A stretch of DNA of 64,000 bases from an uncultured Clostridia bacterium (lineage in GTDB: Bacteria; Bacillota; Clostridia; UMGS1883), in assembly GCA_947629005.1 (NCBI GenBank), contig CANRCD010000002.1, positions 240,488 to 304,487 on the forward strand. The letters are read 5' to 3'. Shown here piece by piece: positions 1,347 through 32,064 of this stretch. The translations under genes and the position numbers were made by a program. Every line of letters begins with the position of its first letter. Position 1 is the first letter of the stretch. The notes below the pieces were generated by a model. It saw nothing but the letters and a program-made list of their open reading frames with translations, was not told where the DNA came from and did not search any database.

Positions 1347-1554
1347 AAGTACCAAAGGGTGTGCTGTGCGCGTGCGCCGTGCGGGCGGCCCTTGGGTAAC
1401 GATGCCAATTCCTTTGCGCGGGGAGCCTCGCGGGTAATCCAAACGGGTATGGGAGGCCCGGAACAAATTGTCCAACGCTGCTGCCGGCGTGAAAGAAAGC
1501 AAAATGAAAATCGGTACATAACCGAAAAAATTAAAAACAGGAGGAAACAGAACA
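1347..1554 (+). promoter_or_regulatory. Long GC-rich structured 5' leader of unknown class
   Basis: About 200 nt lie between the predicted TSS and the AGGAGG RBS. There are nested complementarities (CCAAAGGG/CCCTTGG, GCGC-GT-GCGC, CGCG-GGGAGCCT-CGCG) and pseudo-repeated GGGTAAYS...GCGGG..GAGCC halves. Confidence 0.4.
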
Positions 1555-6286: not shown

Positions 6287-7777
6287 TTATTCAAAATACG
6301 CCAGCGCGGCGGCCATCTGGTCGTCAACGACCTTTACGACGCCGTCATATTCAAAATCCGTCAGCTTTAGGGCGGTGTTGAAATCCAGCTCGCCGCTGAG
6401 TTCCAGCTCGCTGTATGCTTGGAAAATTCGCAGGGCCTCCGAGGTTTTTTCATCAAAAACTCCGTCGGCGTCCGCGTCCTCAATCAGACCGAGGGCGTTC
6501 AGCCGCTGTTCGGCGGCCATGCGCGACGTGTCCGAGTCGAGCTGCGCGAAGTCAAACAGCAGGAAGCTATCCTCATCCACGGGTATCTCGGTATTCTCCA
6601 CAGGGAAATCGGGCGTCAGGCCCACGGTGTGGACGCGCTCTCCCTTGGGGGAGAAGTACTCGCCTGTCGTGAATTTGACGCCGCTGCCGGCGACCGTGCG
6701 TATCATGCTCTGCATACTGCCCTTGCCGTAGGTATGCTCTCCCATAAGCTTCGCTCGCCCGCGGCTTTGCAGAGCCATCGCCAGAAACTCGCTGGCTGAG
6801 GCGGTTTTTCCGTCTACCAGAACAAGAATCTTGTAGCGCGGAGCGTCGAGGTTCTCACTGTAGATTTCCTCCTCGACCTCGCCGTTCTTGTATTCCTTAA
6901 GTTTGCCGATGAGCCCCGCCGGTATCAGCTTCTGCGCCACCGATATCGCGGCGTGCAGCTCTCCGCCTCCGTTGCCGCGCAAATCAATGATTACGTTTTC
7001 TATGCCGGAAGAGTCGATTTCGGCAATGTATCTGTCAAAATCATCGGGAAGTGAGCCCGTGAACGAATCCACGTCAATGTAGGCAATTTTATCATCAATA
7101 ATTTCCATGCTGGAGTGGCTTTCGGTGATTTTGCGGCGCACGGCGCGTATGGGAATGAGTCCCTCGCCGCGCCGAACCGTCAACTCGACGGAGGTATTCT
7201 CCTCGCCGACGACCATTGAGCGCACGTCCGCGGGCAACATACCCGATACGTCGACGCCGTCCACCGTCATAATTTGGTCTCCCACTCGTAGGCCGGCTTC
7301 CTCGCCGCTGCCGCCCGCAAATACGCTGTTGACCACAACGCCGCCGTCCTTGGGCTCCAGCACAACGCCAAGCCCGTAAAAAGCCGCGCCGTAGTACTCG
7401 ATTTCATTCTCGAAGGCGTCAGCGGGATAAAACTCGGCGAATTCATCGCCGGTGGCGTCCAGCATAGCCTTAAGGGCTAAGTCAATGTCGAACTCTCCTC
7501 CGTTCTCGATAGTGGCGCAGATTATGGCGTAGAGTAGGTTGTTGTCGCTGACGCCGTAGTAGTATTCATCCGCAATAGTGTGTGCCATGCTGTATATCAG
7601 CCGCTCCTGCTGCATGGGCGAAAGCGCGGGCCGCTCCTCGGTTTGGGGCTCGGCCTCCGGCAGGGCTTCGGATGACTGCTCTGTAGGAGGCTGCTCGGCC
7701 AAAGGGTCCTCCGCTAAAGCAAAAGCGGGGGAGAGCGCCATTATGAGCGCTGTAAGCAGGGAAATTAATTTCTTCAT
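6287..7777 (-). CDS. S41 family C-terminal processing peptidase with PDZ and C-terminal peptidoglycan-binding domain
   Basis: It has the signal peptide MKKLISLLTALIMALSPAFALA, a PDZ-like GLRVGDQIMTVDGVDVSG, an S41 core (DLRGNGGG, TASASE) and a PG_binding_1-like tail (LNALGL...DGVFDEKTSEALRIFQ). Confidence 0.85.
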   Translation of the reverse strand: MKKLISLLTALIMALSPAFALAEDPLAEQPPTEQSSEALPEAEPQTEERPALSPMQQERLIYSMAHTIADEYYYGVSDNNLLYAIICATIENGGEFDIDLALKAMLDATGDEFAEFYPADAFENEIEYYGAAFYGLGVVLEPKDGGVVVNSVFAGGSGEEAGLRVGDQIMTVDGVDVSGMLPADVRSMVVGEENTSVELTVRRGEGLIPIRAVRRKITESHSSMEIIDDKIAYIDVDSFTGSLPDDFDRYIAEIDSSGIENVIIDLRGNGGGELHAAISVAQKLIPAGLIGKLKEYKNGEVEEEIYSENLDAPRYKILVLVDGKTASASEFLAMALQSRGRAKLMGEHTYGKGSMQSMIRTVAGSGVKFTTGEYFSPKGERVHTVGLTPDFPVENTEIPVDEDSFLLFDFAQLDSDTSRMAAEQRLNALGLIEDADADGVFDEKTSEALRIFQAYSELELSGELDFNTALKLTDFEYDGVVKVVDDQMAAALAYFE

Positions 7778-17946: not shown

Positions 17947-19398
17947 ATGGACACAATGGAAAAGCTTGCTCTCCTCCGCGAAGCCGCCGAAAAGGCCGGC
18001 GGAGAAAAGCGAACCGCACGCGACAGAGCGCTTGCCCTGCTGGACGAGGGCAGCTTTGTTGAAGTCGGAGCCCTTGTTTCCGCGAGGGATCGCTTTACCG
18101 CGGCGGACGGCGTTGTTACGGGCTACGGCACCGTTGACGACAGGCTGGTGTTCGTATACTCGCAGGACCCCGACGTCATGGGCGGGGCCGTGGGCGAGGT
18201 GAACGCCGCCAAGATTCGCCGTGTTTACGAAATGGCAAAAAAAATGGGAGCTCCCGTCGTGGGGATACTTGATTCCTGCGGGGCCCGCGTGGGCGAGGGA
18301 GCGGCGGCTCAGGCCGCGATGGGCGGAATTTTCGCCGCGGCGGCCGAACTCAGCGGCGTAGTCCCGATGATAAGCGTCGTTTTGGGCAGCTGCGCCGGAG
18401 GCGAGGCCATGGCCGCCGCGATGAGCGACTTTGTTATTATAAACGAAAAAACGGGCCGTATGTTCGTGAACGGCCCGACGGTAATCAAGTCGGCCACGGG
18501 CAAGGCCGCAGCCGTGGACGGCAAGGGCTCGTTCACGGTCAGCGGCAACGCTCACCTGATGGGCGCGGACGACGCTTCCTGCCTTGCGCAGGCGAGGCTG
18601 CTGCTCAGCTATCTTCCCTCGAATAATCTTTCCGACGCCGTTGTGCTTGACTGCGCCGACGACCTTAACCGCACAAGCGAGCTGCTCTCCTCCCTTGAGG
18701 ACGGGTACGATATGCGCGCCGTCATTGCCGAGGTGGCCGACGACGCTGCGTTCATGGAACTTCAGAGCGAATACGCGAAAAACGCCGTCACGGGCTTTAT
18801 CCGCGTGAACGGCGCAACCGTGGGCGTGGCCGCCAATCAGCCCAGGGAGGACGGCGGCGTGCTTTCTGGCAGGGCCGTTGAAAAGCTGGCCCGTTTTGTG
18901 CGCTTCTGCGACTGCTTCAACATCCCTGTCGTTACCTTTACCGATGTGGACGGCTTCGCCGTCAGCGCCGACGAGGAGGCTTGGGGCCTCGCCCGCAAGG
19001 GAGCGAAGCTGCTTTACGCCTTCGCCGAGGCCACTGTTCCAAAGGTGAACGTAATCGTGGGCAGGGCCTATGGCAGCGGTTACGCGGCCATGAACTCCAA
19101 GCAGCTCGGGGCCGATGTGGTCTATGCCTTCCCTAGGGCCGAGATAGCTCCCCTCAACTCCAAGGCCGGCGTGCAGCTTCTCTACGAGGATAAGCTGCAC
19201 GAGGGAATGAGCCGCGATGAGCTTGAGGCGGCGTATAAGGCCGCCGACGCTTCGCCGCTGCTCGCGGCGTCTGTTGGCGAGGTGGACGACGTTATCAACC
19301 CCGCCGAGGCCAGAAGCCGTATTGCCGCCGCGCTTGAGATGCTTGCCAGCAAGCGTGTCTCGGGCGTCAGCCGCAAGCACGGCAATATGCCCCTTTAA
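17947..19398 (+). CDS. Acyl-CoA carboxyltransferase (12S / methylmalonyl-CoA decarboxylase alpha type)
   Basis: It has the carboxyl_trans domain pattern (GGEKR...LLDEGSFVE, GGAVG, GRAYGSGYAAM) and is 483 aa. Confidence 0.85.
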   Translation: MDTMEKLALLREAAEKAGGEKRTARDRALALLDEGSFVEVGALVSARDRFTAADGVVTGYGTVDDRLVFVYSQDPDVMGGAVGEVNAAKIRRVYEMAKKMGAPVVGILDSCGARVGEGAAAQAAMGGIFAAAAELSGVVPMISVVLGSCAGGEAMAAAMSDFVIINEKTGRMFVNGPTVIKSATGKAAAVDGKGSFTVSGNAHLMGADDASCLAQARLLLSYLPSNNLSDAVVLDCADDLNRTSELLSSLEDGYDMRAVIAEVADDAAFMELQSEYAKNAVTGFIRVNGATVGVAANQPREDGGVLSGRAVEKLARFVRFCDCFNIPVVTFTDVDGFAVSADEEAWGLARKGAKLLYAFAEATVPKVNVIVGRAYGSGYAAMNSKQLGADVVYAFPRAEIAPLNSKAGVQLLYEDKLHEGMSRDELEAAYKAADASPLLAASVGEVDDVINPAEARSRIAAALEMLASKRVSGVSRKHGNMPL

Positions 19399-19410
19399 GA
19401 GGTGAGAAGC

Positions 19411-19755
19411 ATGGAAAAGGATTTTGTCGTTTCCGAGTTACTCGGTCAGGGCGCGGCATATACGGTCATGGGTATATGTATCGTTTTCCTTATACTTATA
19501 ATCATAATGTTCGTAATTAAGGCTATGGCGCTGCTTTCCGCCGAAAAGGCCCCCGAGCCCGAGGCCGCTCCCGCCGCGCCCGTGGCCGCCGAGGCCGAAA
19601 GCGCTGCCGACGAGGGCGAGCTTGTGGCGGTAATAACCGCCGCCGTGGCCGCCTGCATGGGCGCGGACGCCTCGTCCATAGTTGTCAAGTCATACAAAAA
19701 GGCCGATTCGTGGAACAGGGCCGGCCGCAGAGAAGTTATTGAAAACAGATTTTAA
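19411..19755 (+). CDS. OadG/MmdD-like small membrane subunit of Na+-translocating decarboxylase
   Basis: It has a single N-terminal TM (YTVMGICIVFLILIIIMFVI) followed by an Ala/Pro/Glu-rich tail. An RBS GAGGTG precedes the ATG at 19411. Confidence 0.65.
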   Translation: MEKDFVVSELLGQGAAYTVMGICIVFLILIIIMFVIKAMALLSAEKAPEPEAAPAAPVAAEAESAADEGELVAVITAAVAACMGADASSIVVKSYKKADSWNRAGRREVIENRF

Positions 19756-19769
19756 GGAGGATAAACACC

Positions 19770-20129
19770 ATGAGAAAATTTATCGTAAACGTAAACGGAA
19801 ATTCCTATGAGGTCGAGGTCGAGGAGGTAGGCGCTTCCGCCGCCGCTCCCGCCCCTGCCGCTGCCGCCGCCCCCAAGGCCGCCGCTCCCGCCCCCAAGAA
19901 GGCCGCCGCCCCGCTTAACGGCGTTCCCGTAAAGGCCCCCATGCCCGGCAACGTGCTCGACATCAAGGTTTCGAGCGGGGCAACGGTAAAGGCCGGCGAT
20001 ACCCTTGTAATCCTCGAAGCAATGAAGATGGAGAACGAAATCAAGGCTCCTCAGGCCGGCGTGGTAACGGTGGTAGTCTCCAAGGGCTCCACGGTCAACA
20101 CCGGCGACGTTCTTGTGACAATAGCCTGA
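19770..20129 (+). CDS. Biotin carboxyl carrier protein (1.3S / MmdC type)
   Basis: It has an Ala/Pro linker followed by the biotinylation motif EAMKMENEI. Confidence 0.9.
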   Translation: MRKFIVNVNGNSYEVEVEEVGASAAAPAPAAAAAPKAAAPAPKKAAAPLNGVPVKAPMPGNVLDIKVSSGATVKAGDTLVILEAMKMENEIKAPQAGVVTVVVSKGSTVNTGDVLVTIA

Positions 20130-20159
20130 CAAGAACGGAGAGAATGGAGTTGATATAAG

Positions 20160-21413
20160 TTGCTGACTAAATTAGTGGAGGGCTTCGCGGCCTTTTTCGC
20201 CAAGACCGGCGTGGCTGAGATTGTCGGCGGCTTTCTGTCCGACGGAGGATGGAAAACCCTCGTCATGCTTGCCATTGCCTGCGTGCTCCTTTACCTTGCC
20301 ATTGTAAAGCAGTTCGAGCCGCTTCTGCTGCTGCCCATCGCTTTCGGTATGCTCATCGCGAACCTGCCGCTGGGCGAGGTCATGCACATGGAGCTGTTCA
20401 TTGACCCCAACGACCCTAACGCCCATCTGAACATTCAGCGTATCGTCGAGGAGGGCGGACTGCTCGACCTCTTGTACTTGGGCGTTAAGCTGGGCATATA
20501 CCCGCCGCTCATCTTCCTCGGTATCGGCTGTATGACGGATTTCGGCCCGCTCATCGCTAACCCCAAGAGCATTCTGCTCGGGGCGGCGGCGCAGCTTGGC
20601 GTGTTCATCACGTTTATTGGCGCTATCGTGCTCGGCGCCTTCGGCATCGGCGGCTTTGGCGCGGACGGCACTATGGAAACCATCTTTAAGGAGGCCGCCT
20701 CGATAGGCATAATCGGCGGCGCCGACGGACCCACGGCCATATACGTTACAAAGACGCTGGCCCCCGGCCTTCTCAGCGCCATCGCCATAGCGGCCTATTC
20801 CTACATGGCGCTTATTCCCGTTATCCAGCCCCCCATAATGAAAGCCCTCACTACAAAGGAGGAGAGGCAGATAGTTATGGAGCAGCTCCGTCCCGTCACC
20901 AAAAGGGAAAAGATACTTTTCCCCATAATCGTGACGCTGGTGGTCGTGCTGTTGGTTCCCGACGCGGCCCCGCTTGTCGGTATGCTTATGCTGGGCAACC
21001 TTATCAAAGAGAGCGGCGTGGCTGACCGCCTGTGCAAGACTGCTCAGAACGAGCTTATGAATATAATTACGATTTTCCTCGGCCTTACGGTGGGCGCCAC
21101 CGCCACGGCCGAAACCTTCCTCACCCCCAAAACGCTGCTCATCATCTGCCTCGGCCTTGTGGCCTTCAGCGTCAGCACAGCCGGCGGCCTTATCTTCGGC
21201 AAGATAATGTGCAAGGCCACGGGCGGCAAAATAAACCCGCTCATCGGCAGCGCCGGCGTCAGCGCCGTACCAATGGCCGCGCGTATGTCCCAGAAGGTGG
21301 GCCAGGAGGAAAACCCCGCGAACTTCCTTCTGATGCACGCGATGGGGCCAAACGTCGCCGGCGTTATCGGCAGCGCGGTCGCGGCGGGCGTGTTCTTAGC
21401 GCTGTTTAATTAA
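20160..21413 (+). CDS. Na+-translocating decarboxylase beta subunit (OadB/MmdB/GcdB family)
   Basis: It is a polytopic membrane protein with FEPLLLLPIAFGMLIANLP and GADGPT motifs. Confidence 0.9.
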   Translation: MLTKLVEGFAAFFAKTGVAEIVGGFLSDGGWKTLVMLAIACVLLYLAIVKQFEPLLLLPIAFGMLIANLPLGEVMHMELFIDPNDPNAHLNIQRIVEEGGLLDLLYLGVKLGIYPPLIFLGIGCMTDFGPLIANPKSILLGAAAQLGVFITFIGAIVLGAFGIGGFGADGTMETIFKEAASIGIIGGADGPTAIYVTKTLAPGLLSAIAIAAYSYMALIPVIQPPIMKALTTKEERQIVMEQLRPVTKREKILFPIIVTLVVVLLVPDAAPLVGMLMLGNLIKESGVADRLCKTAQNELMNIITIFLGLTVGATATAETFLTPKTLLIICLGLVAFSVSTAGGLIFGKIMCKATGGKINPLIGSAGVSAVPMAARMSQKVGQEENPANFLLMHAMGPNVAGVIGSAVAAGVFLALFN

Positions 21414-21428
21414 AGGAGGATATCAAAC

Positions 21429-22835
21429 ATGGACAACAAAAAACCGGTCAAGATAACCGAAACCATACTCCGCGACGCACATCAGTCTCTCATCGCCACG
21501 CGAATGACAACCGATGAAATTCTCGGCGCGGTGGAAATGCTGGATAAGGTCGGCTTCAACGCGCTGGAAGCTTGGGGCGGCGCCACCTTCGACAGCTGCC
21601 TGCGCTTCCTCAACGAGGACCCGTGGGAGCGGCTGCGCAAAATAAAGGCCAAGGCCAAAAACACCCCCATCCAAATGCTGTTCCGCGGCCAGAATATCCT
21701 CGGCTACCGCCACTACGCCGACGATGTTGTTGAGTACTTTGTACAGAAGTCCATCGCAAACGGAGTTGACATAATCCGTATATTTGACGCCCTCAACGAC
21801 GTTCGCAATCTTAGAACGGCAATAAACGCCACTATAAAGGAAAAGGGCCACGTTCAGGCCGCGATCTCCTACACTATCAGTCCCGTGCATAACAACGCTT
21901 CCTTTGTGGAGCTGGCGAAGCAGCTTGAAGGCATGGGCGCAAATTCCATCTGCATTAAGGACATGGCCGGACTGCTTACGCCGTATAACGCCTATGAGCT
22001 TGTCACTGCCATGAAGAAGGCCGTCAAGATACCCATCGAGCTTCACACTCACTACACAAGCGGCGTCGCATCCATGACCTACCTTAAGGCCATTGAAGCC
22101 GGAGTTGATATTGTGGACTGCGCCATGTCGCCCTTTGCTATGGGTACGTCTCAGCCGCCTACAGAGTCGCTCGTAGCCACCCTTAAGGACACCCCCTACG
22201 ACACAGGGCTTGACCTCGGTCTGCTCAGCGACATCGCCGATTACTTCCGCCCGATTCGTGAGAAGTACATCAAGGAGGGAGTGCTGAACCCCAAGTCCCT
22301 CGCGGTGGATGTGAACACCCTCAAATATCAGGTGCCGGGCGGTATGCTGAGCAACCTTATATCTCAGCTTAAACAGCTCGGGGCCGAGGATAAGTTCCAA
22401 GAGGTGCTTAAGGAGGTTCCGCGCGTCCGCGAGGACGCCGGTTTCCCGCCGCTTGTAACGCCCACCAGCCAGATAGTCGGCTCTCAGGCCGTGTTCAACG
22501 TGGTGCTCGGCGAACGCTATAAGAACGTGACGAAGGAGTTCCGAGGCCTTATAAAGGGCGAGTACGGCAAAACTCCCGTTGAGATAAAGCCCGAATTCGT
22601 AAAGCGGATAATCGGGGACGAAAAGCGCATAACAAAGCGTCCCGCCGACGATATACCCAACGAGCTCGACCGCTTCCGCGGCGAAATAAAGGAGTATATC
22701 GAGCAGGACGAGGACGTTCTGAGCTACGCGCTCTTTGGGCAGGTGGCCGTGAAGTACTTTAAGTTCCGTCAGGCCGGCAGGCTCGGCGTTGAGCCGGAAC
22801 TCGCCAACGCCGGCGATAAGGTTCACCCCATGTAG
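21429..22835 (+). CDS. Oxaloacetate decarboxylase alpha / transcarboxylase 5S-type carboxyltransferase, lacking a biotinyl domain
   Basis: It has an HMGL-like TIM barrel (ITETILRDAHQSL, IKDMAGLL, HTHYTSG) and PYC_OADA. At 468 aa it ends without an AMKM motif. Confidence 0.85.
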   Translation: MDNKKPVKITETILRDAHQSLIATRMTTDEILGAVEMLDKVGFNALEAWGGATFDSCLRFLNEDPWERLRKIKAKAKNTPIQMLFRGQNILGYRHYADDVVEYFVQKSIANGVDIIRIFDALNDVRNLRTAINATIKEKGHVQAAISYTISPVHNNASFVELAKQLEGMGANSICIKDMAGLLTPYNAYELVTAMKKAVKIPIELHTHYTSGVASMTYLKAIEAGVDIVDCAMSPFAMGTSQPPTESLVATLKDTPYDTGLDLGLLSDIADYFRPIREKYIKEGVLNPKSLAVDVNTLKYQVPGGMLSNLISQLKQLGAEDKFQEVLKEVPRVREDAGFPPLVTPTSQIVGSQAVFNVVLGERYKNVTKEFRGLIKGEYGKTPVEIKPEFVKRIIGDEKRITKRPADDIPNELDRFRGEIKEYIEQDEDVLSYALFGQVAVKYFKFRQAGRLGVEPELANAGDKVHPM

Positions 22836-22870
22836 GGGTTAAGAAAAGGAAAATTGTTTGAAATATAAAG

Positions 22871-22899
22871 AAAATCCGCCGTTGGGCGGATTTTCTTTG
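22871..22899 (+). terminator. Intrinsic terminator AAAATCCGCC-GTTG-GGCGGATTTT plus T-run
   Basis: Read directly after the decarboxylase cluster. Confidence 0.8.
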
Positions 22900-22984
22900 T
22901 TTAATCTTTTCTGCTTGGCTGCCGTAAATACATCGCCCGCCGCCGCGGCGGCCTGCGCAACTTTTTTACAGCCGCTTCTGTTTG

Positions 22985-23191
22985 TCAGCCGTTGTCCCTT
23001 ACGGGTATCTTCTCCTTGAAAAGGAGGGTTATCGACCAGAGGCCGCCCAGCGCTACAAGGGTATAGATTATGCGGCTGAGGATTGACGCCTGACCACCGA
23101 ACAGGGTGGCCACGAGGTCAACGCCGAACAGGCCGATGCTGCCCCAGTTGAGCGCGCCGATAATTACAAGAACCAACGCTGTGTTGTCCAT
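22985..23191 (-). CDS. DUF378 small membrane protein
   Basis: LVIIGALNWGSIGLFGVDLVA is the typical DUF378 signature. It is 68 aa. Confidence 0.8.
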   Translation of the reverse strand: MDNTALVLVIIGALNWGSIGLFGVDLVATLFGGQASILSRIIYTLVALGGLWSITLLFKEKIPVRDNG

Positions 23192-23237: not shown

Positions 23238-24008
23238 TTATTTATTATTCATGCCCGCGTCGCGTTGCTTTGCGGCCTCGTATATCACCAGTGCCGCCGC
23301 AACCGAGGCGTTGAGGGAATTTACGCTGCCGCGCATGGGAATTTTTACCAAAAAATCGCATTTTTCCGCCACAAGACGGCTCAGTCCCTCGCCCTCGCTG
23401 CCGATAACTATGGCCACGGGCCCTCTTAAGTCGGCCTTGTAGAGGCTGCGGTCGCCGGCGGCGTCGGCTCCGGTAATCCAGAGACCTTCTTTTTTAAGGC
23501 TGTCAATAGTCTTAGCGAGATTGCCAACCCGTGCCACGGGAGTGTATTCCACGGCTCCGGCGCTGGCTTTAGCGGCAGCGGCGGTGACGCCCACTCCGCC
23601 GTGGCGCGGAATGATAACGCCATGGGCTCCGGCACAGTTTGCGGTGCGGATGACGCTGCCGAGATTATGCGGGTCGGCCACGCGGTCAAGTATCACTATA
23701 AAGGGCGGCTCGCCGCGGCTGCGGGCAATTTCGAGAATATCCTCCACAGAGGCGTACTCGATTGGCGAGGCCTGCGCGATAACGCCCTGATGATTCTTGG
23801 TTTCGCTCATTTCGTCAAGGCGGGCGGCGTCAACCTCGGTGACGGTTATGCCTCGGCGGGCGGCCTCGCGCAGGATTGGGATTATGCTGCCCTGCTTTTC
23901 GCCCCTTTTCACGTACAGCTTGTCTATCTGCCGGCCGCTTTTCAGAGCCTCGGCCACGGGATTGCGGCCCTCAATTTTATCGCTTCTGTCGTGTGTTTCG
24001 GCGGGCAT
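23238..24008 (-). CDS. rlmB: 23S rRNA (guanosine-2'-O)-methyltransferase, SpoU/TrmH family (RlmB-like)
   Basis: It has the N-terminal SpoU_sub_bind (EGRNPVAEAL), then DPHNLG, GSEGEGLS and SLNASVAA. Confidence 0.85.
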   Translation of the reverse strand: MPAETHDRSDKIEGRNPVAEALKSGRQIDKLYVKRGEKQGSIIPILREAARRGITVTEVDAARLDEMSETKNHQGVIAQASPIEYASVEDILEIARSRGEPPFIVILDRVADPHNLGSVIRTANCAGAHGVIIPRHGGVGVTAAAAKASAGAVEYTPVARVGNLAKTIDSLKKEGLWITGADAAGDRSLYKADLRGPVAIVIGSEGEGLSRLVAEKCDFLVKIPMRGSVNSLNASVAAALVIYEAAKQRDAGMNNK

Positions 24009-24013
24009 TTGCC

Positions 24014-26566
24014 TCAGTCCTTCCTATCACGTTTCTTTTTTGCTCTGCTGCCGAAAATCAGCTTGATGAGCTCCGCCGGCGCCACGGAAAGCGCGCCTGA
24101 GGCCGCGGCCGCCGCAATGACGGACGGGCTCAGAGAGTCCGCGCCGAGGGCGCGGCTGAGCGAGGGAACCACAATGGCCAGAACTCCGGCGAGTATGCAG
24201 AGCAGTAGGCAGACCGGCGCGGCATGGTTCTTGCCGAGCCGTTTAAAAATGAGCTCGTCGCTGCGGCAGCTCTGCGCCATCAGCGTAAAGGCCGCGCACA
24301 GGGCGGCAAAGACCGCTCCTCGCCGTTCGTCAACGGCGAGAGAGCTTGCGGAAATCGCGTAAAACAGCATAGCCGCTCCGCCCATGAGGGTTCCGCGCCA
24401 TATAACCCCGCGAAAGAAGGAGGGTGAAATCCTCCGCTTGACGCGTCCCTGCCGCTTGGCTCGGCTGCCGTCACTCTTGTGGTACGGCTCTCGCCAGACG
24501 GCTGCCGCGCCTATCATCGCCATAACGGTGTTCAGCCATATCACAGCCAGCGGCGAAAACGGTATGGAATATCCCATAATCAGCGAGACCACGGCGCAGA
24601 CCATCTCAGCCGCGTTGCATGAGAGCAAAAAGCCAACAATGCGCCCGTTATTGACAAAGGCGCGCTTGCACTCGCGCACAGCGGCGGCAAGCCGCATAAG
24701 ACCGGCGCCGCTGACGTTCACGTCCGCCGCGGCCGCGCATACTCCGGCCGATACGTCGGTGGCGGCCGAAGCCGCGCTGCGGTTCATGGCGTCCACATCT
24801 TTCGCGCCGCGGCCAACTGTGACTACGCTATCGCTGCCGGAGTTTATTTCAGCCACTATGTCAGCCTTCATTGCGGGCGGAGTGTCAGCAAGTACGGTGT
24901 TGCGCATTATCCGGCTGAGAGAGCCCGCGCAGTCCGGCCCGCGGAACACCCCGCCGCGGCCTATGCCGCAGGCGGCGGCCACAGCCGTGGCCGAGGTGAG
25001 ATTGTCGTCAGTAATGATGCAGACCTTCACGCCCATTGAGTTGAGGGCCTTGACGGCCTGAGCGGAATCCGTGCGGACAGGGTTGCTGAGCCCCATAAGT
25101 CCCACAAAGATAAGGCCGCTTTCGGGATCGCCGCCAAGGTCGCGCACGTCTTTGTACGCCACGCCGATAACGGTCAGCGCTTTGCTTGCCATGGACTGAG
25201 CGTCTCCGATAACGGCGGCTATGTCGCGCGGAGCGTCGAGCAGACGCGCTCCGTTGTCGTATATATAAGAGCAACGAGACAGCACCGCGTCGGCGCCGCC
25301 TTTGCAGATTATCCTGTAGCCATGAGGCGTCTTGTGGACAGTCGTCATGACGTGGGCCGAGCTGCGGTTGTCAAGTACCTGCTCGGACGGGTACTTGACG
25401 CGGATATCCTCCTCGGTGAGACCGTTTGCAAGAGCATCGCTCACGAGGGCCACTTGCATGGCGTCGCCGGTGAGACGGCCATCCTCAAAAACAGCTGTGG
25501 TACACATGGCCGCGAGCAGGCGGAGTTCGTTCTCATCGAAGCCCTTGCCCGCGCGAAGCTCGCTTACGCCAAAGCCAAGCTCGGTAACCGTTCCGCGCTT
25601 ACCAACGCAGAGCACCGACGAGCCGCCCACGGCCTCCATGGCCGAAACCGAGCTTACGTCAACGCCGCGCTTCTTAAGGCTGAATATGTCGAAACCCGTG
25701 GTGACGAGCAGAATGGCTGACAGCGACACGGGCGCCGCTGTCAGCGCCGCCGATATGGAGTTCCCAAAGGCTGAGACCACTCCGTATCCGCCCAAAAGGC
25801 GCAGCGCCAGCGCAGCGGCCCACATAACGGCAGCGGACAAGGCGCAGACCGCGCCAATGGACGAAACCCGCGCCGCCAGCGCTGACGACGGCGCTCTGCG
25901 GCTCAAAGCTTCCAGCGCGCGGCCGAGCTGAGTGTCGCCGCCGACGTCTGTAACAATAGCCTTCGCACTGCCGCTTAGTATTTTTGTGCCCATATAAAGT
26001 GCGGTTATACTCTCGTTTTCCAGCCCACATACGGCGGATTTCGTCACCGAGGAGACGTCGCCGTCGATGACGCTTTCGTCCACTACCAGCGACTCGCACT
26101 CGATTATTTTTGCGTCTGCGGGAACGGTCTGACCCTTTTCGAGCAGACACACGTCGCCCCTTGTGAGCAGCGAAGCCAGCGCCCGCTGCTCCATCCCGCC
26201 GCGGATTACGCGCACGGTCTGGCTCTGAGCATCTTTAAGAGCGCTTGCCGCGGAGCTTTCGCGGCGCAGTCCGATATAGCCAACGGCGGCGTTCACCGCC
26301 GCGCACAGCGCCAGCACCGCCGCCACGGGCCCCCTATCTGCACCGCCCGCCGCAAGCTGGAGCAGCGCCATAAGCAGCAGCGCTGTGTTCAGCGGTGAAA
26401 ACAGGCGGCGGAAAAAGCCCGCGAAGGTCTTTTTGACCCTCGGCACACGGATAGTGTTGCGCCCTCGGCTGTGGATACGCTCGTGGGCGCTCTCTACCGT
26501 CAGCCCCCTTGCCGTATCGGAACCCAACTCGGCTGCAATCTCCGCGGCGGACAGCTTATAGTTCAT
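24014..26566 (-). CDS. P-type ATPase homolog with degenerate catalytic motifs (predicted pseudo-ATPase)
   Basis: It has the P-type fold order with substitutions: N-terminal GLT..A..R, LCVGKRGTVT in place of ICSDKTGTLT, IDGDVSS for TGES, PVSL for PEGL, SNPVR for DPPR, IITDDN for ITGD, and VGRGAKDVDAM for GDGVNDAPAL. Confidence 0.75.
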   Translation of the reverse strand: MNYKLSAAEIAAELGSDTARGLTVESAHERIHSRGRNTIRVPRVKKTFAGFFRRLFSPLNTALLLMALLQLAAGGADRGPVAAVLALCAAVNAAVGYIGLRRESSAASALKDAQSQTVRVIRGGMEQRALASLLTRGDVCLLEKGQTVPADAKIIECESLVVDESVIDGDVSSVTKSAVCGLENESITALYMGTKILSGSAKAIVTDVGGDTQLGRALEALSRRAPSSALAARVSSIGAVCALSAAVMWAAALALRLLGGYGVVSAFGNSISAALTAAPVSLSAILLVTTGFDIFSLKKRGVDVSSVSAMEAVGGSSVLCVGKRGTVTELGFGVSELRAGKGFDENELRLLAAMCTTAVFEDGRLTGDAMQVALVSDALANGLTEEDIRVKYPSEQVLDNRSSAHVMTTVHKTPHGYRIICKGGADAVLSRCSYIYDNGARLLDAPRDIAAVIGDAQSMASKALTVIGVAYKDVRDLGGDPESGLIFVGLMGLSNPVRTDSAQAVKALNSMGVKVCIITDDNLTSATAVAAACGIGRGGVFRGPDCAGSLSRIMRNTVLADTPPAMKADIVAEINSGSDSVVTVGRGAKDVDAMNRSAASAATDVSAGVCAAAADVNVSGAGLMRLAAAVRECKRAFVNNGRIVGFLLSCNAAEMVCAVVSLIMGYSIPFSPLAVIWLNTVMAMIGAAAVWREPYHKSDGSRAKRQGRVKRRISPSFFRGVIWRGTLMGGAAMLFYAISASSLAVDERRGAVFAALCAAFTLMAQSCRSDELIFKRLGKNHAAPVCLLLCILAGVLAIVVPSLSRALGADSLSPSVIAAAAASGALSVAPAELIKLIFGSRAKKKRDRKD

Positions 26567-26580
26567 TTTTCCATCTTCCT

Positions 26581-28848
26581 TTATCTTATGATGATAATGC
26601 GTACCCTGCCGCCGTTTCTGACGCTTTCGTCGCCGTAGATTTCCACTTCGGCGGAGCCGAGACGCATGGCCTCCTCTGCGGAGATGAGGGAGTATTCGCC
26701 GTTCTCACGGCGGTAAATTTCAAAGCCCGCCGCCGCGCGGTACACTGTGTTATCCACTTTGACGCGGTCGCCGCTGACAGCCGTTATCTTTTTGCCGCTG
26801 TCCATCAGCACGGCGTCGGTAAACCCGCCGGTCAGAGTATTAATGCCGATTACCGGAGTTGCAAATACGCGCCTGCCGGCGTTTACGCTGGTTTCTTCGC
26901 CGTGGAGAAGCACGGCGTAGCTGCCGGAGGTGTACTTGCGGACGATATTGCCCTCCTCGTCCCGTTCCACAACGGTATCTGTGGCGGTTATCACGCCGTA
27001 TTCATAATCGGCCTTTGTCACGTTCTGGAGGTAGAGCAGAGTCACGTCCTTCATAGGGCCGGAAAGCTCGGCGTGAATCACCTGATCCCGAGAAAGCGAG
27101 CTGCCGTCTATGTCGGATAAGCGTATCTTGCGCACAACGGCCGGTCCGTCGTCAGGATTCGCGGCCAGCACGAGGACGCTGCAATCCGAGGATATCCAGC
27201 TCCCGTCAAAGGTCATAAGCTCCTTGTCAAGCTTGCCGTCCTTGCGGCTGTAGGTTATGGCCCTGAGTAAGGCCGCGCCGTCCGCAAAAGAGAGCTCCAT
27301 AAGGCGGCCCTTCTTGTCGGAATAGTCAATATTGGACTTGTACTCCATCTCGGAGCCGTCCGGCAGGAACAGCTTCACGGCGTAGCCCTGATTGCCGTGC
27401 TCGTCGGTTTTGCGATAGGAATCCAGCACCACGGCGAGGCTGCGGCCGATTGAGGCGGTGGAATCCACCACGTCGGCAATGTCGCCGTTACGGTCGAGGA
27501 GCAGCGTCACAAAGTCCCCTATGGCAAAGGCTCCTGCGGACTCGTTCAGCTTATTCATGGCCTCGGCGGCGCCTATTTTATAGCTCTTCCCGCCCACGGT
27601 CACCTGCGTAACCGAGGACTTGTAGGGCTCGGCCTTCTCGTATGTTCCGCTGACCTTGGCGTCGTACGCGTAGACGGTGTTGGTGTTGGCGTCGTAGTAA
27701 ACCACGTCGTATATGGCGATATCGTCAATGCTTGCCCTCACGCCGCGGCGGATAACAGACGGCGCGGACGCTATGGCAAAAAGGTCGTAAATCTGCTGCC
27801 CGCCGGTCGTGACGGTCTTGGGTCCCTCCATGGTGTATATATCCACCACGGCGCTTTTGAACGCGCCGGTCTCGTCGTAGAACAGCTTTATCCTGCTGCC
27901 GGTTGTGATATCTGCGGCCACTGCCTCGGCGGTTGTTTTTTCACCGTCGGCGAAAACTGTGCCGCTGTAGGGCAGGCTAACAGCGCCGCCGGTCCAGCTT
28001 ATGTCAACGGTGCGGCGGTCCGCATTGGAAAGGCATGAGGCAACCACGATCTCCTGTCCGTCGCCGCCGTCGCTCTTGAACATCAGTATCTCCTTGTCGC
28101 GGCTGACGTAGAGCGTGCCCGTTTTGCCAAAGCTGTCGGCTCCAATCGCTCCGTCTGCGGCCTTGAAGCCGCCTTCGCTGGTTTCGATTATGCTGCTGTC
28201 GCTCTTATTGAGGCCGTAGAGCAGCGCGTCGTCGTAGACTGTTATACCGGCCTTCGAGGCGAGGGTCACGTCCTCCTGACCGTTGAGATCGGCGTCGAGA
28301 GCGTTGTTCACGATAACGGCCATATCGCCTCGGGTAACATAATCGTTGGCGTTGAGGCTGACTCCTTTATCGAGCCCCAGCGCGCGGGCCTTGCTGACAA
28401 AATCGCTGGGCCAGTGAAAGCCGATGTCGCTGTCGGTATAGTCCATGCAGCGCATAAGCACCGTCACGGCCTGAGCAAAGGTCAGCACATTTTTTCCGCC
28501 GAAGCTGCCGTCGGGAAAGCCGGCGATAATGCCGGTCTCGGCCACATAGGAAATGTAGCCCAGCGCCCAACTGTCGGGCGAAACGTCCGTAAAGGCAGTG
28601 GCCGAGAGCGAGGCGGAGGCCTTTTCCTCCTGTCCGAGAATGCGGACGGCGATTTTTGCGAACTGCTCCCTTGTGACGTAGTCGTCGGGGCGGAAGCTGC
28701 CGTCACCTAGGCCGTCCAGCACGCCAAGCGTGGCGAGGGTACGCGCGGCCTCGGCCTCAGTCGGATCGGTTATGTCGGTAAAATCGGCCATAGCTGGAAT
28801 TGCGGCCATGATTGCCGCCAGTATGGCCGCAATGATTTTCTTTATCAT
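26581..28848 (-). CDS. S-layer homology (3x SLH) domain wall-associated protein, C-terminal region unknown
   Basis: It has a signal peptide and SLH repeats (FTDI...A...L..LGVL.G..DGSFRPDDYVTREQFA, FTDV...W..GYI......GII.GFPDGSFG). An RBS GGAGGG precedes the ATG at 28848. Confidence 0.8.
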   Translation of the reverse strand: MIKKIIAAILAAIMAAIPAMADFTDITDPTEAEAARTLATLGVLDGLGDGSFRPDDYVTREQFAKIAVRILGQEEKASASLSATAFTDVSPDSWALGYISYVAETGIIAGFPDGSFGGKNVLTFAQAVTVLMRCMDYTDSDIGFHWPSDFVSKARALGLDKGVSLNANDYVTRGDMAVIVNNALDADLNGQEDVTLASKAGITVYDDALLYGLNKSDSSIIETSEGGFKAADGAIGADSFGKTGTLYVSRDKEILMFKSDGGDGQEIVVASCLSNADRRTVDISWTGGAVSLPYSGTVFADGEKTTAEAVAADITTGSRIKLFYDETGAFKSAVVDIYTMEGPKTVTTGGQQIYDLFAIASAPSVIRRGVRASIDDIAIYDVVYYDANTNTVYAYDAKVSGTYEKAEPYKSSVTQVTVGGKSYKIGAAEAMNKLNESAGAFAIGDFVTLLLDRNGDIADVVDSTASIGRSLAVVLDSYRKTDEHGNQGYAVKLFLPDGSEMEYKSNIDYSDKKGRLMELSFADGAALLRAITYSRKDGKLDKELMTFDGSWISSDCSVLVLAANPDDGPAVVRKIRLSDIDGSSLSRDQVIHAELSGPMKDVTLLYLQNVTKADYEYGVITATDTVVERDEEGNIVRKYTSGSYAVLLHGEETSVNAGRRVFATPVIGINTLTGGFTDAVLMDSGKKITAVSGDRVKVDNTVYRAAAGFEIYRRENGEYSLISAEEAMRLGSAEVEIYGDESVRNGGRVRIIIIR

Positions 28849-28914
28849 TTTATCACCCTCCATGGGATAGTGTGGAAACTCGAAATGAAATAATAAGTAA
28901 AAATCTGAAATTTA

Positions 28915-30105
28915 TTATTCGTATCTCAGCGCGTCGATGGGCTTCATTCGGGCGGCCTTAAAGGCAGGGTAAAATCCGAAGAACACGCCTACCAGCGCGG
29001 AAAAGCCAAACGAGGCGGTAATGACGGGTATCTGATCCACAATAGGCACCGAGTCATAGCCGAAGGCCATGGTGGCAAACTCGCTGCCCACAATGCCAAG
29101 GGCAATGCCGATGCACCCGCCTATGCAGCTTATCACTGCGGACTCAATTAAAAACTGTGTGAGAATAGTCCGCATTTTCGCACCGACGGCCTTTCTTATG
29201 CCAATCTCGCGCGTGCGCTCGGTGACGGTCACCAGCATGATGTTCATTATGCCTATACCGCCCACAAGCAGCGATATACCTGCGATTGCCGCCGCGAGCA
29301 GCGACATCGAGTTTATCTCCTCGTTGAGCTGCTGCATATTTTCGGCCTGATTATATACGTAGACGGCGTTGTCGTCTTGGTATATCCTTTTGAAAAGCTC
29401 CTTAATTTTGTCAACCGCCTGCGTGGATATCTTCGGGTCGGTCACGCCTACAAAGTATTCGTTTATGCGGGCATTCTTCATCAGGCGCTGGGCACGGGTG
29501 TAGGGGATAACTATGCGGGCGTCGTCGCCCCATTCGTTCAGCTCCTCGCTCTGCTGCTTAAGCAGGCCCACAACGGTGAAAACCTCGCCCTCTATCCTTA
29601 TTTCCTGCCCGACAGGGTCTCGCCCGCCGAAAAGCTGGCGGCGGACGTATTCGCCGATAACGGCCACGCTGGAGCGGTTCTTAACGTCGGACGAGGTAAA
29701 GAAGCTGCCGCCCGAGAGGGCGCTGTTCTTCATCAGACCGTAGCCGGGGCTCGTGCCGTAGATGCGGCCATTCAGATTGCGGTTGCCGTTTTTTACCCTG
29801 CCGCCGCCTTCAATTACCGGCGCGGCAAAGGTTAGCAGGTCGGGATTGTCCTTGACTACCTTGTCCACGTCGGTGGGAGTGACGCGGCGGGTAGTCTCGC
29901 CGTAGCGGTTGACGTAAAGTTCGATGACATTTGCGTCCATCTGATCCATCCACTCGCGCATACCCATTGCGGCGGCGGTGACCATGTTGACCATGATTAT
30001 TACCGCTAAAACGCCGATGATTATGCCCAGCATGGTAAGAAGGGAGCGTACCTTATTGGAGGCTATGCTTTGCAGAGCCATCTTAAAGCTCATTACCACG
30101 TTCAT
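28915..30105 (-). CDS. MacB/FtsX-type ABC transporter permease (MacB_PCD + FtsX), with no fused or adjacent NBD
   Basis: It has the N-terminus ALQSIASNKVRSLLTMLGIIIGV and the C-terminal FtsX motif ERTREIGIRKAVGA...P...AARM.PI.ALRYE. Confidence 0.85.
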   Translation of the reverse strand: MNVVMSFKMALQSIASNKVRSLLTMLGIIIGVLAVIIMVNMVTAAAMGMREWMDQMDANVIELYVNRYGETTRRVTPTDVDKVVKDNPDLLTFAAPVIEGGGRVKNGNRNLNGRIYGTSPGYGLMKNSALSGGSFFTSSDVKNRSSVAVIGEYVRRQLFGGRDPVGQEIRIEGEVFTVVGLLKQQSEELNEWGDDARIVIPYTRAQRLMKNARINEYFVGVTDPKISTQAVDKIKELFKRIYQDDNAVYVYNQAENMQQLNEEINSMSLLAAAIAGISLLVGGIGIMNIMLVTVTERTREIGIRKAVGAKMRTILTQFLIESAVISCIGGCIGIALGIVGSEFATMAFGYDSVPIVDQIPVITASFGFSALVGVFFGFYPAFKAARMKPIDALRYE

Positions 30106-30117
30106 GTTGACGCTCCT

Positions 30118-31995
30118 TTACCAGTACATCATGTCATCCTGCGAAGCGAGGCCCATGTCGCGCAGGACGTCGCCCTCGTTAAGGCCGGATTTTATCTCGA
30201 AAAGGTCAGTGCTGTGGAGGCCCACATCGACCTGAACCTGAGTTTCTACCTCCTCGCCTTCGGCTTCGCCCGGGGTAACTAAGGTGGCGTAATACATATC
30301 GCCCACCATAAAGATGGCCGACGCCGGAGCTACGATTACGTCCTCGGCGATACCGACGTTTATCTCGGCGGTAACATTCATGCCGCTCATCAAATTGCCG
30401 ACCTCGTCCACGGTTATCGACACCGGATAGCCGGTTATGCCGCTTTCCGAGTTGCCTATGCGCGACACCGCCGTCACCGTGCCCGAGAACATCTCTCCGG
30501 GCAATGCGTCGGCCGTGACGGATACGCTCTGGCCTTCCTTTATGTTGGAGATATCCAGCTCGTCTACGTTTATGGTGAAGGTCATGGCGCTCATATCGGC
30601 TACGACCATGAGATTGCGGTTGTCGCCCTCGCCGCTGTAGTTGTCGCCGGCCTTGTAGTACTTTTCAAGCACCACGCCGGAAACGGGCGAGTAAATTGTG
30701 TAATCCTCGGCGGCTTTTTTCGCCACGTCAAGAGCGCTTTGGGCGTTGTCCACGTTCTCAATGGCGTCCTCGCGGCCGTCCTTGGCGTCCTGCCAAGCCT
30801 TTTCGGCGGATTTGACGGAGTTATTGCCGCTCTCGCGGGCGTTTTCAAGGGCCTCCTCAAGGGTGCGGCAGGCTTTTTCGCGCTCGGCGAGCAAATCCTC
30901 CAGCGTTTCGCTGCTTATACGGGCTATAGCCTGACCGGCGCTGACGGTATCGCCGTTTTCCACGTATACGGCGGTTATCTCGCCGGCCTCCTCAACTTCA
31001 ATATCCTCGGGCTCGGCGTATGTTACCGTGCCGCTGGTGGGGCACTCTATATCGCCGTTTGAGGTATGTACCGTGACGGATATTTTTGTACCGGCGGCGA
31101 GGTTAAGGCCGTTGTCGAGCAAAATCTTCACGTTATACATAACGGTGCCGTCGGCCCCGCTGTGGGGCGCGCCGTACTTTCGGGCGACTCTGCCGCCCAC
31201 GCTGTCCATAAGACTGGCCACGCCGACGGTCACTCTGTCGCCTTCCTTTATATTTTGTATCTGAAGGCTGTTGAAGCTGACCGTAGCCGAAACGTCGCTG
31301 TAACTCTGTATCTGCCCCAGCGACGCGCCCGACTGCTTGCCCTCCTGCGCAGTGAGACCCTCAACCACGCCGGCTATGGGCGCGCGCACTGTCAATTTAC
31401 CCATGCGCTCCTGAACCTCGGCGAGGTTTTCACGGGCTTCGGCAAGGTCGCGCTCGGCGTCCTCCACGGAGCGTTGGGCGTTGCGCCGCGCGGTCTCAAT
31501 AGCCTCGGCGGCGTCGGCAATGGCGTCGTCCACGCCCGTAAGGCCGCGCTGAGCGGCGCGCAGGGCGTTTTCGGCATTCTTTATCTTATCCTGAGCCTCG
31601 GCGTCCTCAAAGCGGTAGAGCAGGTCGCCCTTTTCCACGGTTTGTCCCTTTTCGTACCCGCACTCCGTGATGGCGCCGGTAACGAGCGGCGTCAGCGTGT
31701 ATGACTCGATAGGCTGGACCGTGCCCGAGCCCGTGACGCGCACGTCCACCGTTCCACGGGAGACTACCGACGTTGTCTGCGTTTCGGTCTCGGCGCCGGT
31801 TTCTCGGCTGTGCTTGAAGCGGATAAAAGCAACCAGCCCCGCGATTAGCGCGGCCAGCAGAATTATACGTATTGTGTTCTTGAACCATCTGCGCTTGTAG
31901 AAGCGCTTTTTTTTCGGCTTTATAATATCCTGCCCGATTTGTTCCGCGGTCTGTTCCGCGGCCTCGGGGGCGGTTTTTTTCTTTTTAAAAAGCAT
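30118..31995 (-). CDS. HlyD/MacA-type periplasmic adaptor (membrane fusion protein) with long coiled coil
   Basis: It has an N-terminal TM, barrel-sandwich and lipoyl-like segments, and a long charged coiled-coil region. An RBS GGGAGGA precedes the ATG at 31995. Confidence 0.8.
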   Translation of the reverse strand: MLFKKKKTAPEAAEQTAEQIGQDIIKPKKKRFYKRRWFKNTIRIILLAALIAGLVAFIRFKHSRETGAETETQTTSVVSRGTVDVRVTGSGTVQPIESYTLTPLVTGAITECGYEKGQTVEKGDLLYRFEDAEAQDKIKNAENALRAAQRGLTGVDDAIADAAEAIETARRNAQRSVEDAERDLAEARENLAEVQERMGKLTVRAPIAGVVEGLTAQEGKQSGASLGQIQSYSDVSATVSFNSLQIQNIKEGDRVTVGVASLMDSVGGRVARKYGAPHSGADGTVMYNVKILLDNGLNLAAGTKISVTVHTSNGDIECPTSGTVTYAEPEDIEVEEAGEITAVYVENGDTVSAGQAIARISSETLEDLLAEREKACRTLEEALENARESGNNSVKSAEKAWQDAKDGREDAIENVDNAQSALDVAKKAAEDYTIYSPVSGVVLEKYYKAGDNYSGEGDNRNLMVVADMSAMTFTINVDELDISNIKEGQSVSVTADALPGEMFSGTVTAVSRIGNSESGITGYPVSITVDEVGNLMSGMNVTAEINVGIAEDVIVAPASAIFMVGDMYYATLVTPGEAEGEEVETQVQVDVGLHSTDLFEIKSGLNEGDVLRDMGLASQDDMMYW

Positions 31996-32035
31996 CTGTA
32001 TATCCTCCCGACGGCACATAATAATAGACAATATA

Positions 32036-32064
32036 ATTATACACCTGAATTAACGTCATTTCAA
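32036..32064 (-). promoter_or_regulatory. Promoter TTGAAA-N17-TATAAT for the adaptor-permease-SLH-ATPase-like operon
   Basis: Read on the reverse complement. It is preceded by the queA terminator CGGCCG-ACCGG-CGGCCG plus T-run. Confidence 0.6.

Follow-up and report, generated by a model that had tools for sequence, protein, structure and literature searches.

A probably non-catalytic P2-type ATPase homolog conserved next to rlmB in uncultured Clostridia

We analysed a stretch of 64,000 nucleotides (56% G+C) from an uncultured Clostridia bacterium (assembly GCA_947629005.1, contig CANRCD010000002.1, positions 240,488 to 304,487), hereafter the window, which carries a gene for a degenerate homolog of P2-type ATPases at 24014..26566 on the minus strand. 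The gene, which we call the pseudo-ATPase gene, is a single unbroken open reading frame (ATG 26566-26564, TGA 24016-24014) coding for 850 amino acids, and its G+C content at third codon positions (0.72) is typical among the genes of the window. It is separated by 5 nucleotides from rlmB (23238-24008) and by 14 nucleotides from a gene for an SLH protein (26581-28863). The original prediction, made from the sequence of the window, had described the intact frame and both gaps correctly, and had left the strand unstated.

By homology and by fold, the pseudo-ATPase belongs to the P-type ATPase superfamily. It has the canonical domain order, with matches above the curated cut-offs to five Pfam families (PF00690, PF00122, PF13246, PF00702 and PF00689), and the fold and ten-helix architecture of a P2-type pump are retained. 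Among solved structures, LMCA1, a Ca2+-ATPase of Listeria, is the closest in sequence (6zhf; phmmer E-value 9e-57, residues 3-805), ahead of SPCA, MgtA, Na,K- and SERCA pumps. The scores against NCBIfam models of specific pump types lie far below their cut-offs (TIGR01522, PMR1-type, 232 vs 798 bits; TIGR01517, PMCA-type, 181 vs 507 bits; TIGR01116, SERCA-type, 160 vs 703 bits), and only the generic model TIGR01494 is passed (94 bits, cut-off 62). An AlphaFold2 (AF2) model built on the alignment of orthologs has a mean predicted local distance difference test score (pLDDT) of 73 and a predicted TM-score (pTM) of 0.69, with good phosphorylation (P), nucleotide-binding (N) and membrane domains and an actuator (A) domain below 50. 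The top Foldseek matches of this model are all P2 ATPases (TM-score 0.71-0.72 for LMCA1), and it superimposes better on E2-type states (0.70-0.72) than on E1 states (0.56-0.63).

The pseudo-ATPase is part of a small and isolated family, family A. When 5.8 billion proteins were searched, 15 full-length orthologs grouped tightly at 44-77% identity, well apart from canonical pumps, which follow at 29%. Among 1.84 billion cluster representatives, a profile search recovered only four clusters of the family (1441, 1127, 728 and 568 bits) and no intermediates between family A and canonical pumps, the next match scoring 416 bits. The same search added one full-length member (P0059), and the set used here comprises 17 full-length members, the window protein and 16 others. 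When one genome per GTDB species was scanned, family A was present in ~10 genomes, all of them metagenome-assembled genomes of uncultured Oscillospiraceae/Clostridia, several from rabbit gut. The public names of these proteins are ‘cation-transporting P-type ATPase’ or ‘HAD-IC family P-type ATPase’.

The P2A Ca2+-ATPases of the LMCA1/YloB type (Listeria lmo0841; 6zhf, 6zhg, 6zhh) resemble the pseudo-ATPase in domain order and in the ten-helix membrane part, and share with it residues including K323, K422, T519, K567, D590, N651 and N679 (numbering with Met1 = 1). However, the pseudo-ATPase is only ~22-29% identical to them and lacks their phospho-acceptor Asp, TGES, PEGL Glu, DPPR Asp, TGD Gly, the first Asp and the Asn of GDGxND, the Asp of transmembrane helix (TM) 6, and the adenine-site residues. 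The register of these motifs was set by phmmer/HMMER alignment to LMCA1 (6zhf) and by MAFFT alignments with canonical P2 ATPases. Six motif substitutions had been proposed in the original prediction, and hidden Markov model and multiple alignments with LMCA1 and canonical homologs place each of them in the proposed register; no Asp, TGES or GDGxND lies in register. The accompanying statement that all signatures are substituted was slightly too strong. The catalytic motifs are indeed changed, but the equivalents of SERCA K352, K515, R604, T625, D627, K684, D707, N768, E771 and N796 are kept in the window protein.

The catalytic motifs, all read on the minus strand, are changed as follows. In the phosphorylation-site segment VLCVGKRGTVTE (25580..25615), DKTGT is replaced by G322-K-R-G-T, with G322 (codon 25601-25603), within CVGKRGT, at the position of the catalytic Asp and R324 at that of the Thr; the phospho-acceptor position is Gly, and GKRG stands for DKTG, in 17 of 17 family members. 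The dephosphorylation loop of the A domain (VIDGDVSSVTK, 26039..26071) has D168-G-D-V in place of TGES, and x-G-[DEG]-x across family A. Its Thr and Ser are gone, and an acidic residue (GD, GE or GGE) is kept by all 17 members. The DPPR equivalent (GLSNPVRTDS, 25064..25093) reads N495-P-V-R, with Asn for the Asp and the Arg kept, and the TGD equivalent (CIITDDNLTSA, 24989..25021) reads T519-D-D, in which T519 and the acidic residue are kept and Gly has become Asp/Asn. In the hinge VVTVGRGAKDVDAMNRS (24776..24826), GDGVND is changed to G585-R-G-A-K-D: R586 takes the place of the Mg-ligand Asp and K589 that of the Asn, and D590 is kept. G585, R586 and D590 are invariant, and GR[GS]xxD replaces GDGxND in 17/17 members. 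Also invariant is K567, the equivalent of the phosphate-binding Lys K684 of SERCA (segment 24854..24892).

The nucleotide- and ion-binding sites are altered as well. Among the nucleotide-domain motifs (25280..25471), GDPTE reads GDAMQ and KGAPE retains its Lys (K422). LDNRSSAH takes the place of the FDSERK segment, with loss of the adenine-stacking Phe, and in the window protein a Thr stands where SERCA has R560. The P2A Ca2+ site has lost two of its acidic ligands. PEGL of TM4 (TAAPVSLSAIL, 25709..25741) is P279-V-S-L, with Val280 at the position of the ion-site Glu, which is hydrophobic in all orthologs, and the ion-site Asp of TM6 is Ala683 here and Ala, Ser, Cys or Met in all members. TM5 (FLLSCNAAEMVCA) and TM6 (IWLNTVMAMIGAAAV; together 24497..24631) keep N651, E654 and N679 in the window protein, residues that vary across the family. 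We observed a charge swap at these positions within family A (P0007-P0015, P0059): one subclade has a TM5 Glu with a TM6 Asn, and the other a TM5 Gln with a TM6 Glu, Asp or Gln. Three members are without an acidic residue at either position.

Conservation within family A is extensive, with ~180 positions invariant at 44-77% identity. It includes signatures that are not present in real pumps, namely IAAELGSD, AHERIHSRGRN, VPADAKII, RECKR, WREPYH and MAQSCRS. The family-specific N-terminal motif IAAELGSD...GL....AHERIHSRGRN (26456..26539, minus strand) ranks among the three best-conserved blocks of family A, with a ratio of nonsynonymous to synonymous substitution rates (dN/dS) of 0.07-0.09. The degenerate motifs are shared by 16/16 other full-length orthologs, and no close relative has canonical motifs. 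We also considered whether relatives have a canonical pump at this locus, and rejected the idea: P0016 and P0017, the closest canonical homologs, are encoded in unrelated contexts, and sister genomes carry a ComEC-like gene or a member of family B (described below) upstream of rlmB, and no canonical pump.

The pseudo-ATPase gene is under purifying selection. By the Nei-Gojobori method on codon alignments, dN/dS is 0.19 between the window and the closest relative, L009 (dS 0.94), and 0.06 between L012 and L018, well below 1 and with no sign of relaxed selection. The window and eight DNA loci all have an intact frame, so neither the broken frame nor the ratio near 1 that would mark a pseudogene is seen. 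By domain, dN/dS is lowest in the phosphorylation-site segment (0.02-0.12) and at the N-terminus. In TM5-10, dN exceeds that of all other domains in each pair tested; dN/dS is likewise highest there, except that TM1-2 surpasses it in the comparison of the window with L009. In the same genome pairs, the neighbouring genes gave values of 0.05-0.11 (rlmB), 0.04-0.05 (a MacB-type permease) and 0.21 (the SLH gene), and the constraint on the pseudo-ATPase is that of an ordinary gene with a moderate rate. The shared degenerate motifs and the purifying selection support the original prediction of a maintained non-catalytic protein rather than a decaying pseudogene. Of the features by which P-type ATPases are defined functionally, the protein lacks every one that can be read from sequence. 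At the level of sequence, it combines the hallmarks of a pseudoenzyme: homology to an enzyme family, absence of the catalytic residues, conservation of this loss in orthologs, and purifying selection.

Downstream of the pseudo-ATPase gene, on the same strand, lie rlmB (23238..24008) and a gene for a small DUF378 membrane protein of 68 amino acids (22985..23191; Pfam PF04070, E-value 5e-25), the third gene of a conserved cluster. The rlmB product, a 23S rRNA Gm2251 2'-O-methyltransferase, is recognised by the Pfam domains SpoU_methylase and SpoU_sub_bind and by TIGR00186 (246 bits, cut-off 160). The order pseudo-ATPase, rlmB, DUF378 is present at every family A locus that extends far enough (L001/L010, L003/L011, L005/L014, L012, L013, L015 and L018; the L009 sequence ends inside rlmB), and the DUF378 proteins, after rlmB in each case, are 82-91% identical. 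Two RlmB homologs, P0209 (418 amino acids) and P0233 (355 amino acids), are far longer than the usual 243-256 amino acids and may have N-terminal extensions, fusions or mis-called starts.

Upstream, again on the minus strand, Pfam matches and synteny identify genes for the SLH protein (760 amino acids, 26581-28863), a MacB-type FtsX permease (28915-30105) and an HlyD-like adaptor (30118-32031), which together span 26581..32031. This trio is linked to the pseudo-ATPase gene only in the window, in L009 (2-4556) and in L001/L010 (L001 1518-6958), and the linkage is absent at the other family A loci (L003, L005, L012-L018). No ABC ATPase partner for the HlyD/FtsX pair was found in the trio cluster or in the 64-kb window.

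The expression signals, read from the sequence, point to constitutive co-expression of the pseudo-ATPase with rlmB. A Shine-Dalgarno-like AGGAAG (26575..26580, minus strand) precedes the pseudo-ATPase ATG by 8 nucleotides. The ribosome-binding site of rlmB (AGGAAGG, 24019-24025) falls within the final codons of the pseudo-ATPase gene, and translational coupling from the pseudo-ATPase to rlmB is likely. Consensus scans located a promoter-like TTGAAA-17-TATAAT (11/12 matches; 32036..32064, minus strand) upstream of the HlyD-like gene, possibly the start of a six-gene transcript, and a strong bidirectional hairpin of 16 bp with T tracts (22865..22900, either strand) after the DUF378 gene, between convergent genes, which is likely to be the end of the transcript. 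At four loci where the family A gene is the first of its cluster, it is preceded by near-consensus housekeeping promoters of the form TTGACA-17-TGnTATAAT (L003 ~6880-6915; L005 ~6910-6945; L013 ~5778-5810; L015 ~5930-5965). The L013 promoter implies a 5' leader of ~190 nucleotides. Control by a riboswitch or leader (Mg2+, Mn2+, cyclic di-AMP or others) was considered and rejected, with no Rfam match at the gathering score in the window, L003, L005, L012 or L015.

Degenerate P2-like proteins also occur outside family A. RlmB homologs at 68-74% identity in other Clostridia are encoded in two arrangements, which differ in the gene between lysC and rlmB. In sister genomes with RlmB 70-74% identical, this gene is ComEC-like (DUF4131 and Competence domains; L024 3858-5900, L025 3842-5911). 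In the other arrangement it encodes a degenerate P2-like protein of ~810 amino acids, family B (P0328-P0357; L026 3572-6001, L029 6001-8505, L030 6001-8463). Family B comprises ~30 clusters, is always located between lysC and rlmB, and overlaps the rlmB start. Like family A, it lies directly upstream of or overlaps rlmB, has lost TGES (now KGRx), the PEGL Glu and GDGxND (hinge GEQMTxPSV), and carries an N-terminal AH[EDG][RK][IL]..GRN. Unlike family A, it keeps the Asp (FDKGGxxT) and TGD, has Arg for K684, is shorter, and is followed after rlmB by ACT and DUF711 genes rather than DUF378. It has no PF00689 or PF00702 match. Grouping of family B with family A on the basis of sequence was rejected: phmmer with the L026 protein ranks canonical pumps above family A, and family B does not resemble family A more than canonical pumps do. 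The links between the two are limited to synteny, the one N-terminal signature and a weak distance tree.

Family C (P0396, P0400, P0431; L027 5001-7490, L028 5001-7595, L031-L066, L082, L083, L088) is a large family of Clostridium and relatives, and was first met in cultured Clostridium genomes, between comEA and comEC-holA. A metagenome scan returned 59 loci, in ~37 of which ComEC is directly next, followed by HolA; the loci without ComEC in that scan are canonical pumps with all motifs intact. The phospho-acceptor position of family C is D, K, E or N, so that the Asp seems not to be required, and from this variation we infer that these proteins are non-catalytic. The next-but-one Thr is I, V, L or M. 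Family C is like family A in its degenerate hinge, TGES and TM4, in NP for DPP and in T[DEN][DE]N for TGDH (T[ED][ED]N in family C itself). It differs from family A in the comEA-gene-comEC-holA context, in having neither GKRG nor GRxxxD, in its cultured Clostridium hosts and in its identity to family A of <25%.

In a neighbour-joining tree of Kimura distances, each of the three families has 100% bootstrap support, A+B 66% and A+B+C 79%, and this grouping is only suggestive because the branches are long and prone to long-branch attraction. Isolated degenerate pumps were also seen among the ~190 otherwise canonical P2-type ATPases returned, such as P0031 (Asp to Arg), P0151 (Asp to Glu) and P0159 (Asp to Gly). 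P0118, P0114 and P0145 are further odd proteins of this kind, and the changes in the whole set are Asp to Arg/Glu/Gly, DTTGT, or a lost hinge. Families A, B and C and the isolated cases together imply that loss of P-type chemistry is either repeated or ancient in Clostridia; family A is the most thoroughly remodelled of these cases. We speculate, very tentatively, that the three families stem from one ancient inactivation of a P2 pump in Clostridia. They would then form one class of ‘dead pumps’, membrane pseudoenzymes retained in core gene neighbourhoods (rlmB; comEA-comEC-holA). The pocket in which the pump was once phosphorylated would bind or lock independently of Mg, and would thereby regulate or scaffold a different membrane process, possibly that of the ComEC channel.

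The aspartyl-phosphate intermediate is what defines a P-type ATPase, and the Asp of motif I is the obligate phospho-acceptor in HAD/P-type chemistry. Without the motif-I Asp, no aspartyl-phosphate would form and no E1P/E2P cycle would be possible; without the hinge Asp, catalytic Mg2+ would not be bound. We consider it very probable that the pseudo-ATPase is maintained by selection and unable to run the pump cycle. With modest confidence, we favour the interpretation that it is a membrane pseudoenzyme, descended from a P2-type (Ca2+-pump-like) ATPase, which functions through the remodelled pocket of its headpiece. Constraint is weakest in the transmembrane half, which argues against a channel as the main role of the protein, and the function would be seated in the cytoplasmic headpiece rather than in the ion pathway.

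The composition of the pocket suggests how such a site might work. K323, T519 and K567, which correspond to phosphate contacts of real pumps, are kept, the positions that hold Mg2+ and their neighbours are now cationic (R324, R586, K/R589), and the nucleophile has become the smallest residue. A formerly acidic, metal-dependent site would in this way have been turned into a basic pocket, a pattern unlike random decay. Because the phosphate-contacting residues are kept and the Mg2+-holding ones are cationic, the pocket most likely binds without turnover. We envisage two modes of binding. The pocket might capture an anionic or phosphoryl-bearing ligand independently of Mg, or it might be permanently salt-bridged, within the protein, to the acidic residue that is conserved in the A-domain loop, so that the headpiece would be locked in a closed, E2-like state. 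The better fit of the AF2 model to E2-type structures agrees, as weak evidence, with the second mode. In either mode, the protein could act as a membrane-anchored sensor or scaffold that is co-expressed with rlmB and DUF378.

A different role, which we consider unlikely, is that of a subunit or accessory of another membrane machine, either a ComEC-type channel or the upstream HlyD/MacB-permease/SLH envelope system, which is without an ABC ATPase gene of its own. This idea draws on the gene order: family C is followed by ComEC and HolA at the ~37 loci described above, the ComEC-like gene of L024/L025 fills between lysC and rlmB the slot of family B in L026/L029/L030, and the HlyD-FtsX-SLH trio adjoins the pseudo-ATPase gene in the window, L009 and L001/L010. 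However, no ComEC, ComEA or HolA gene is present in the 64-kb window or in any family A flank, the trio is missing at L003, L005 and L012-L018, and the common origin of families A, B and C depends on a distance tree with 66-79% bootstrap values that is prone to long-branch attraction. Moreover, a dead ATPase could not energise a MacB-type permease. Less probable again is a passive ion channel, uniporter or ion sensor that uses the remaining polar residues of TM5/TM6, with the dead headpiece as a gate. The ten-helix core is kept, as are N651, E654 and N679 in the window protein, and 14/17 members have one carboxylate in TM5 or TM6, at a position swapped between subclades. Against this stand the hydrophobic residue at the TM4 Glu position and the Ala, Ser, Cys or Met at the TM6 Asp position in all members, the 3 members with no acidic residue at either TM5/TM6 position, and the fast evolution of TM5-10, the fastest-evolving part of the protein.

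It is highly improbable that the frame is kept open mainly for the expression of rlmB, by transcription and translation through it, and that the protein itself is functionless. Coupling requires an open frame and not amino-acid conservation, whereas dN/dS is 0.06-0.19 across all domains and the ~180 invariant positions include GKRG, AHERIHSRGRN and WREPYH at 44-77% identity; this outweighs the 5-nucleotide gap, the rlmB ribosome-binding site within the last pseudo-ATPase codons, the overlap of family B genes with the rlmB start, and the promoter upstream of the pseudo-ATPase gene at four loci. No more credible is a working ATP-driven pump with a non-canonical nucleophile or mechanism. Such a pump would account for the five intact domains and for the retention of K323, T519, K567, D590 and K422, but there is no acidic residue at or beside the nucleophile position (C-V-G-K-R-G-T), the Mg2+-ligand Asp is Arg, and TGES, the adenine-stacking Phe and the equivalent of SERCA R560 are gone; the obligate role of the motif-I Asp is established HAD/P-type chemistry. 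Finally, a recently inactivated pseudogene in which stops have yet to accumulate has nothing in its favour beyond the missing motifs, and can practically be dismissed: the substitutions are fixed across 17 orthologs, the most distant at 44% identity, the frames of all of them are intact, and dN/dS is well below 1.

Several points nevertheless weigh against our interpretation of the pseudo-ATPase as a selection-maintained pseudoenzyme with a functional headpiece pocket. The loss of catalysis is deduced from the sequence, and the salt-bridge and anion-pocket proposals from the pattern of substitutions. The pLDDT values given above show the quality of the AF2 model to be moderate, and its E2-like resemblance may reflect model bias. 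In the usable pairs dS is near saturation (0.9-1.4), and all family A members come from metagenome-assembled genomes. The polar and acidic TM5/TM6 residues N651, E654 and N679 of the window protein leave room for some ion interaction, and the adjacency to rlmB and DUF378 may be inherited gene order.

In pseudoenzymes such as pseudokinases, the fold is kept under selection after catalytic loss, and the old active site is reused for binding or conformational signalling. Degenerate P4-ATPase-like domains have been reported in apicomplexan parasites, where they are fused to guanylate cyclases; family A differs from these in that the whole ten-helix pump is kept as a stand-alone protein. In the searchable full-text literature, including a recent review of the field, we found no description of bacterial P-type homologs without the Asp, or of clostridial comE- or rlmB-linked families, a scope to which TCDB, the Saier-lab surveys and subscription journals do not belong. 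Family A would offer a clear case, in bacteria, of a pump that has become a pseudoenzyme, with selection strongest at the remodelled site, and it raises the question of what uses a ten-helix pump scaffold has without its cycle. The annotation ‘cation-transporting P-type ATPase’ is probably wrong for these proteins, and its use would lead to overestimates of the ion-transport capacity predicted for gut Clostridia. Genetics is feasible for the comEC-linked family C, since it is present in cultured Clostridium strains.

Two further regions of the window attracted our attention. At 17947-22835, on the plus strand and convergent with the DUF378 gene, lies a cluster of the membrane-bound Na+-translocating decarboxylase type, composed of a carboxyltransferase, two small open reading frames, OAD_beta and a PYC_OADA/HMGL-like gene. 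At 1531-4302, long open reading frames overlap on both strands (768 amino acids on the minus and 915 amino acids on the plus strand), with no Pfam match and a G+C content at third codon positions of 0.51, lower than that of the surrounding genes.

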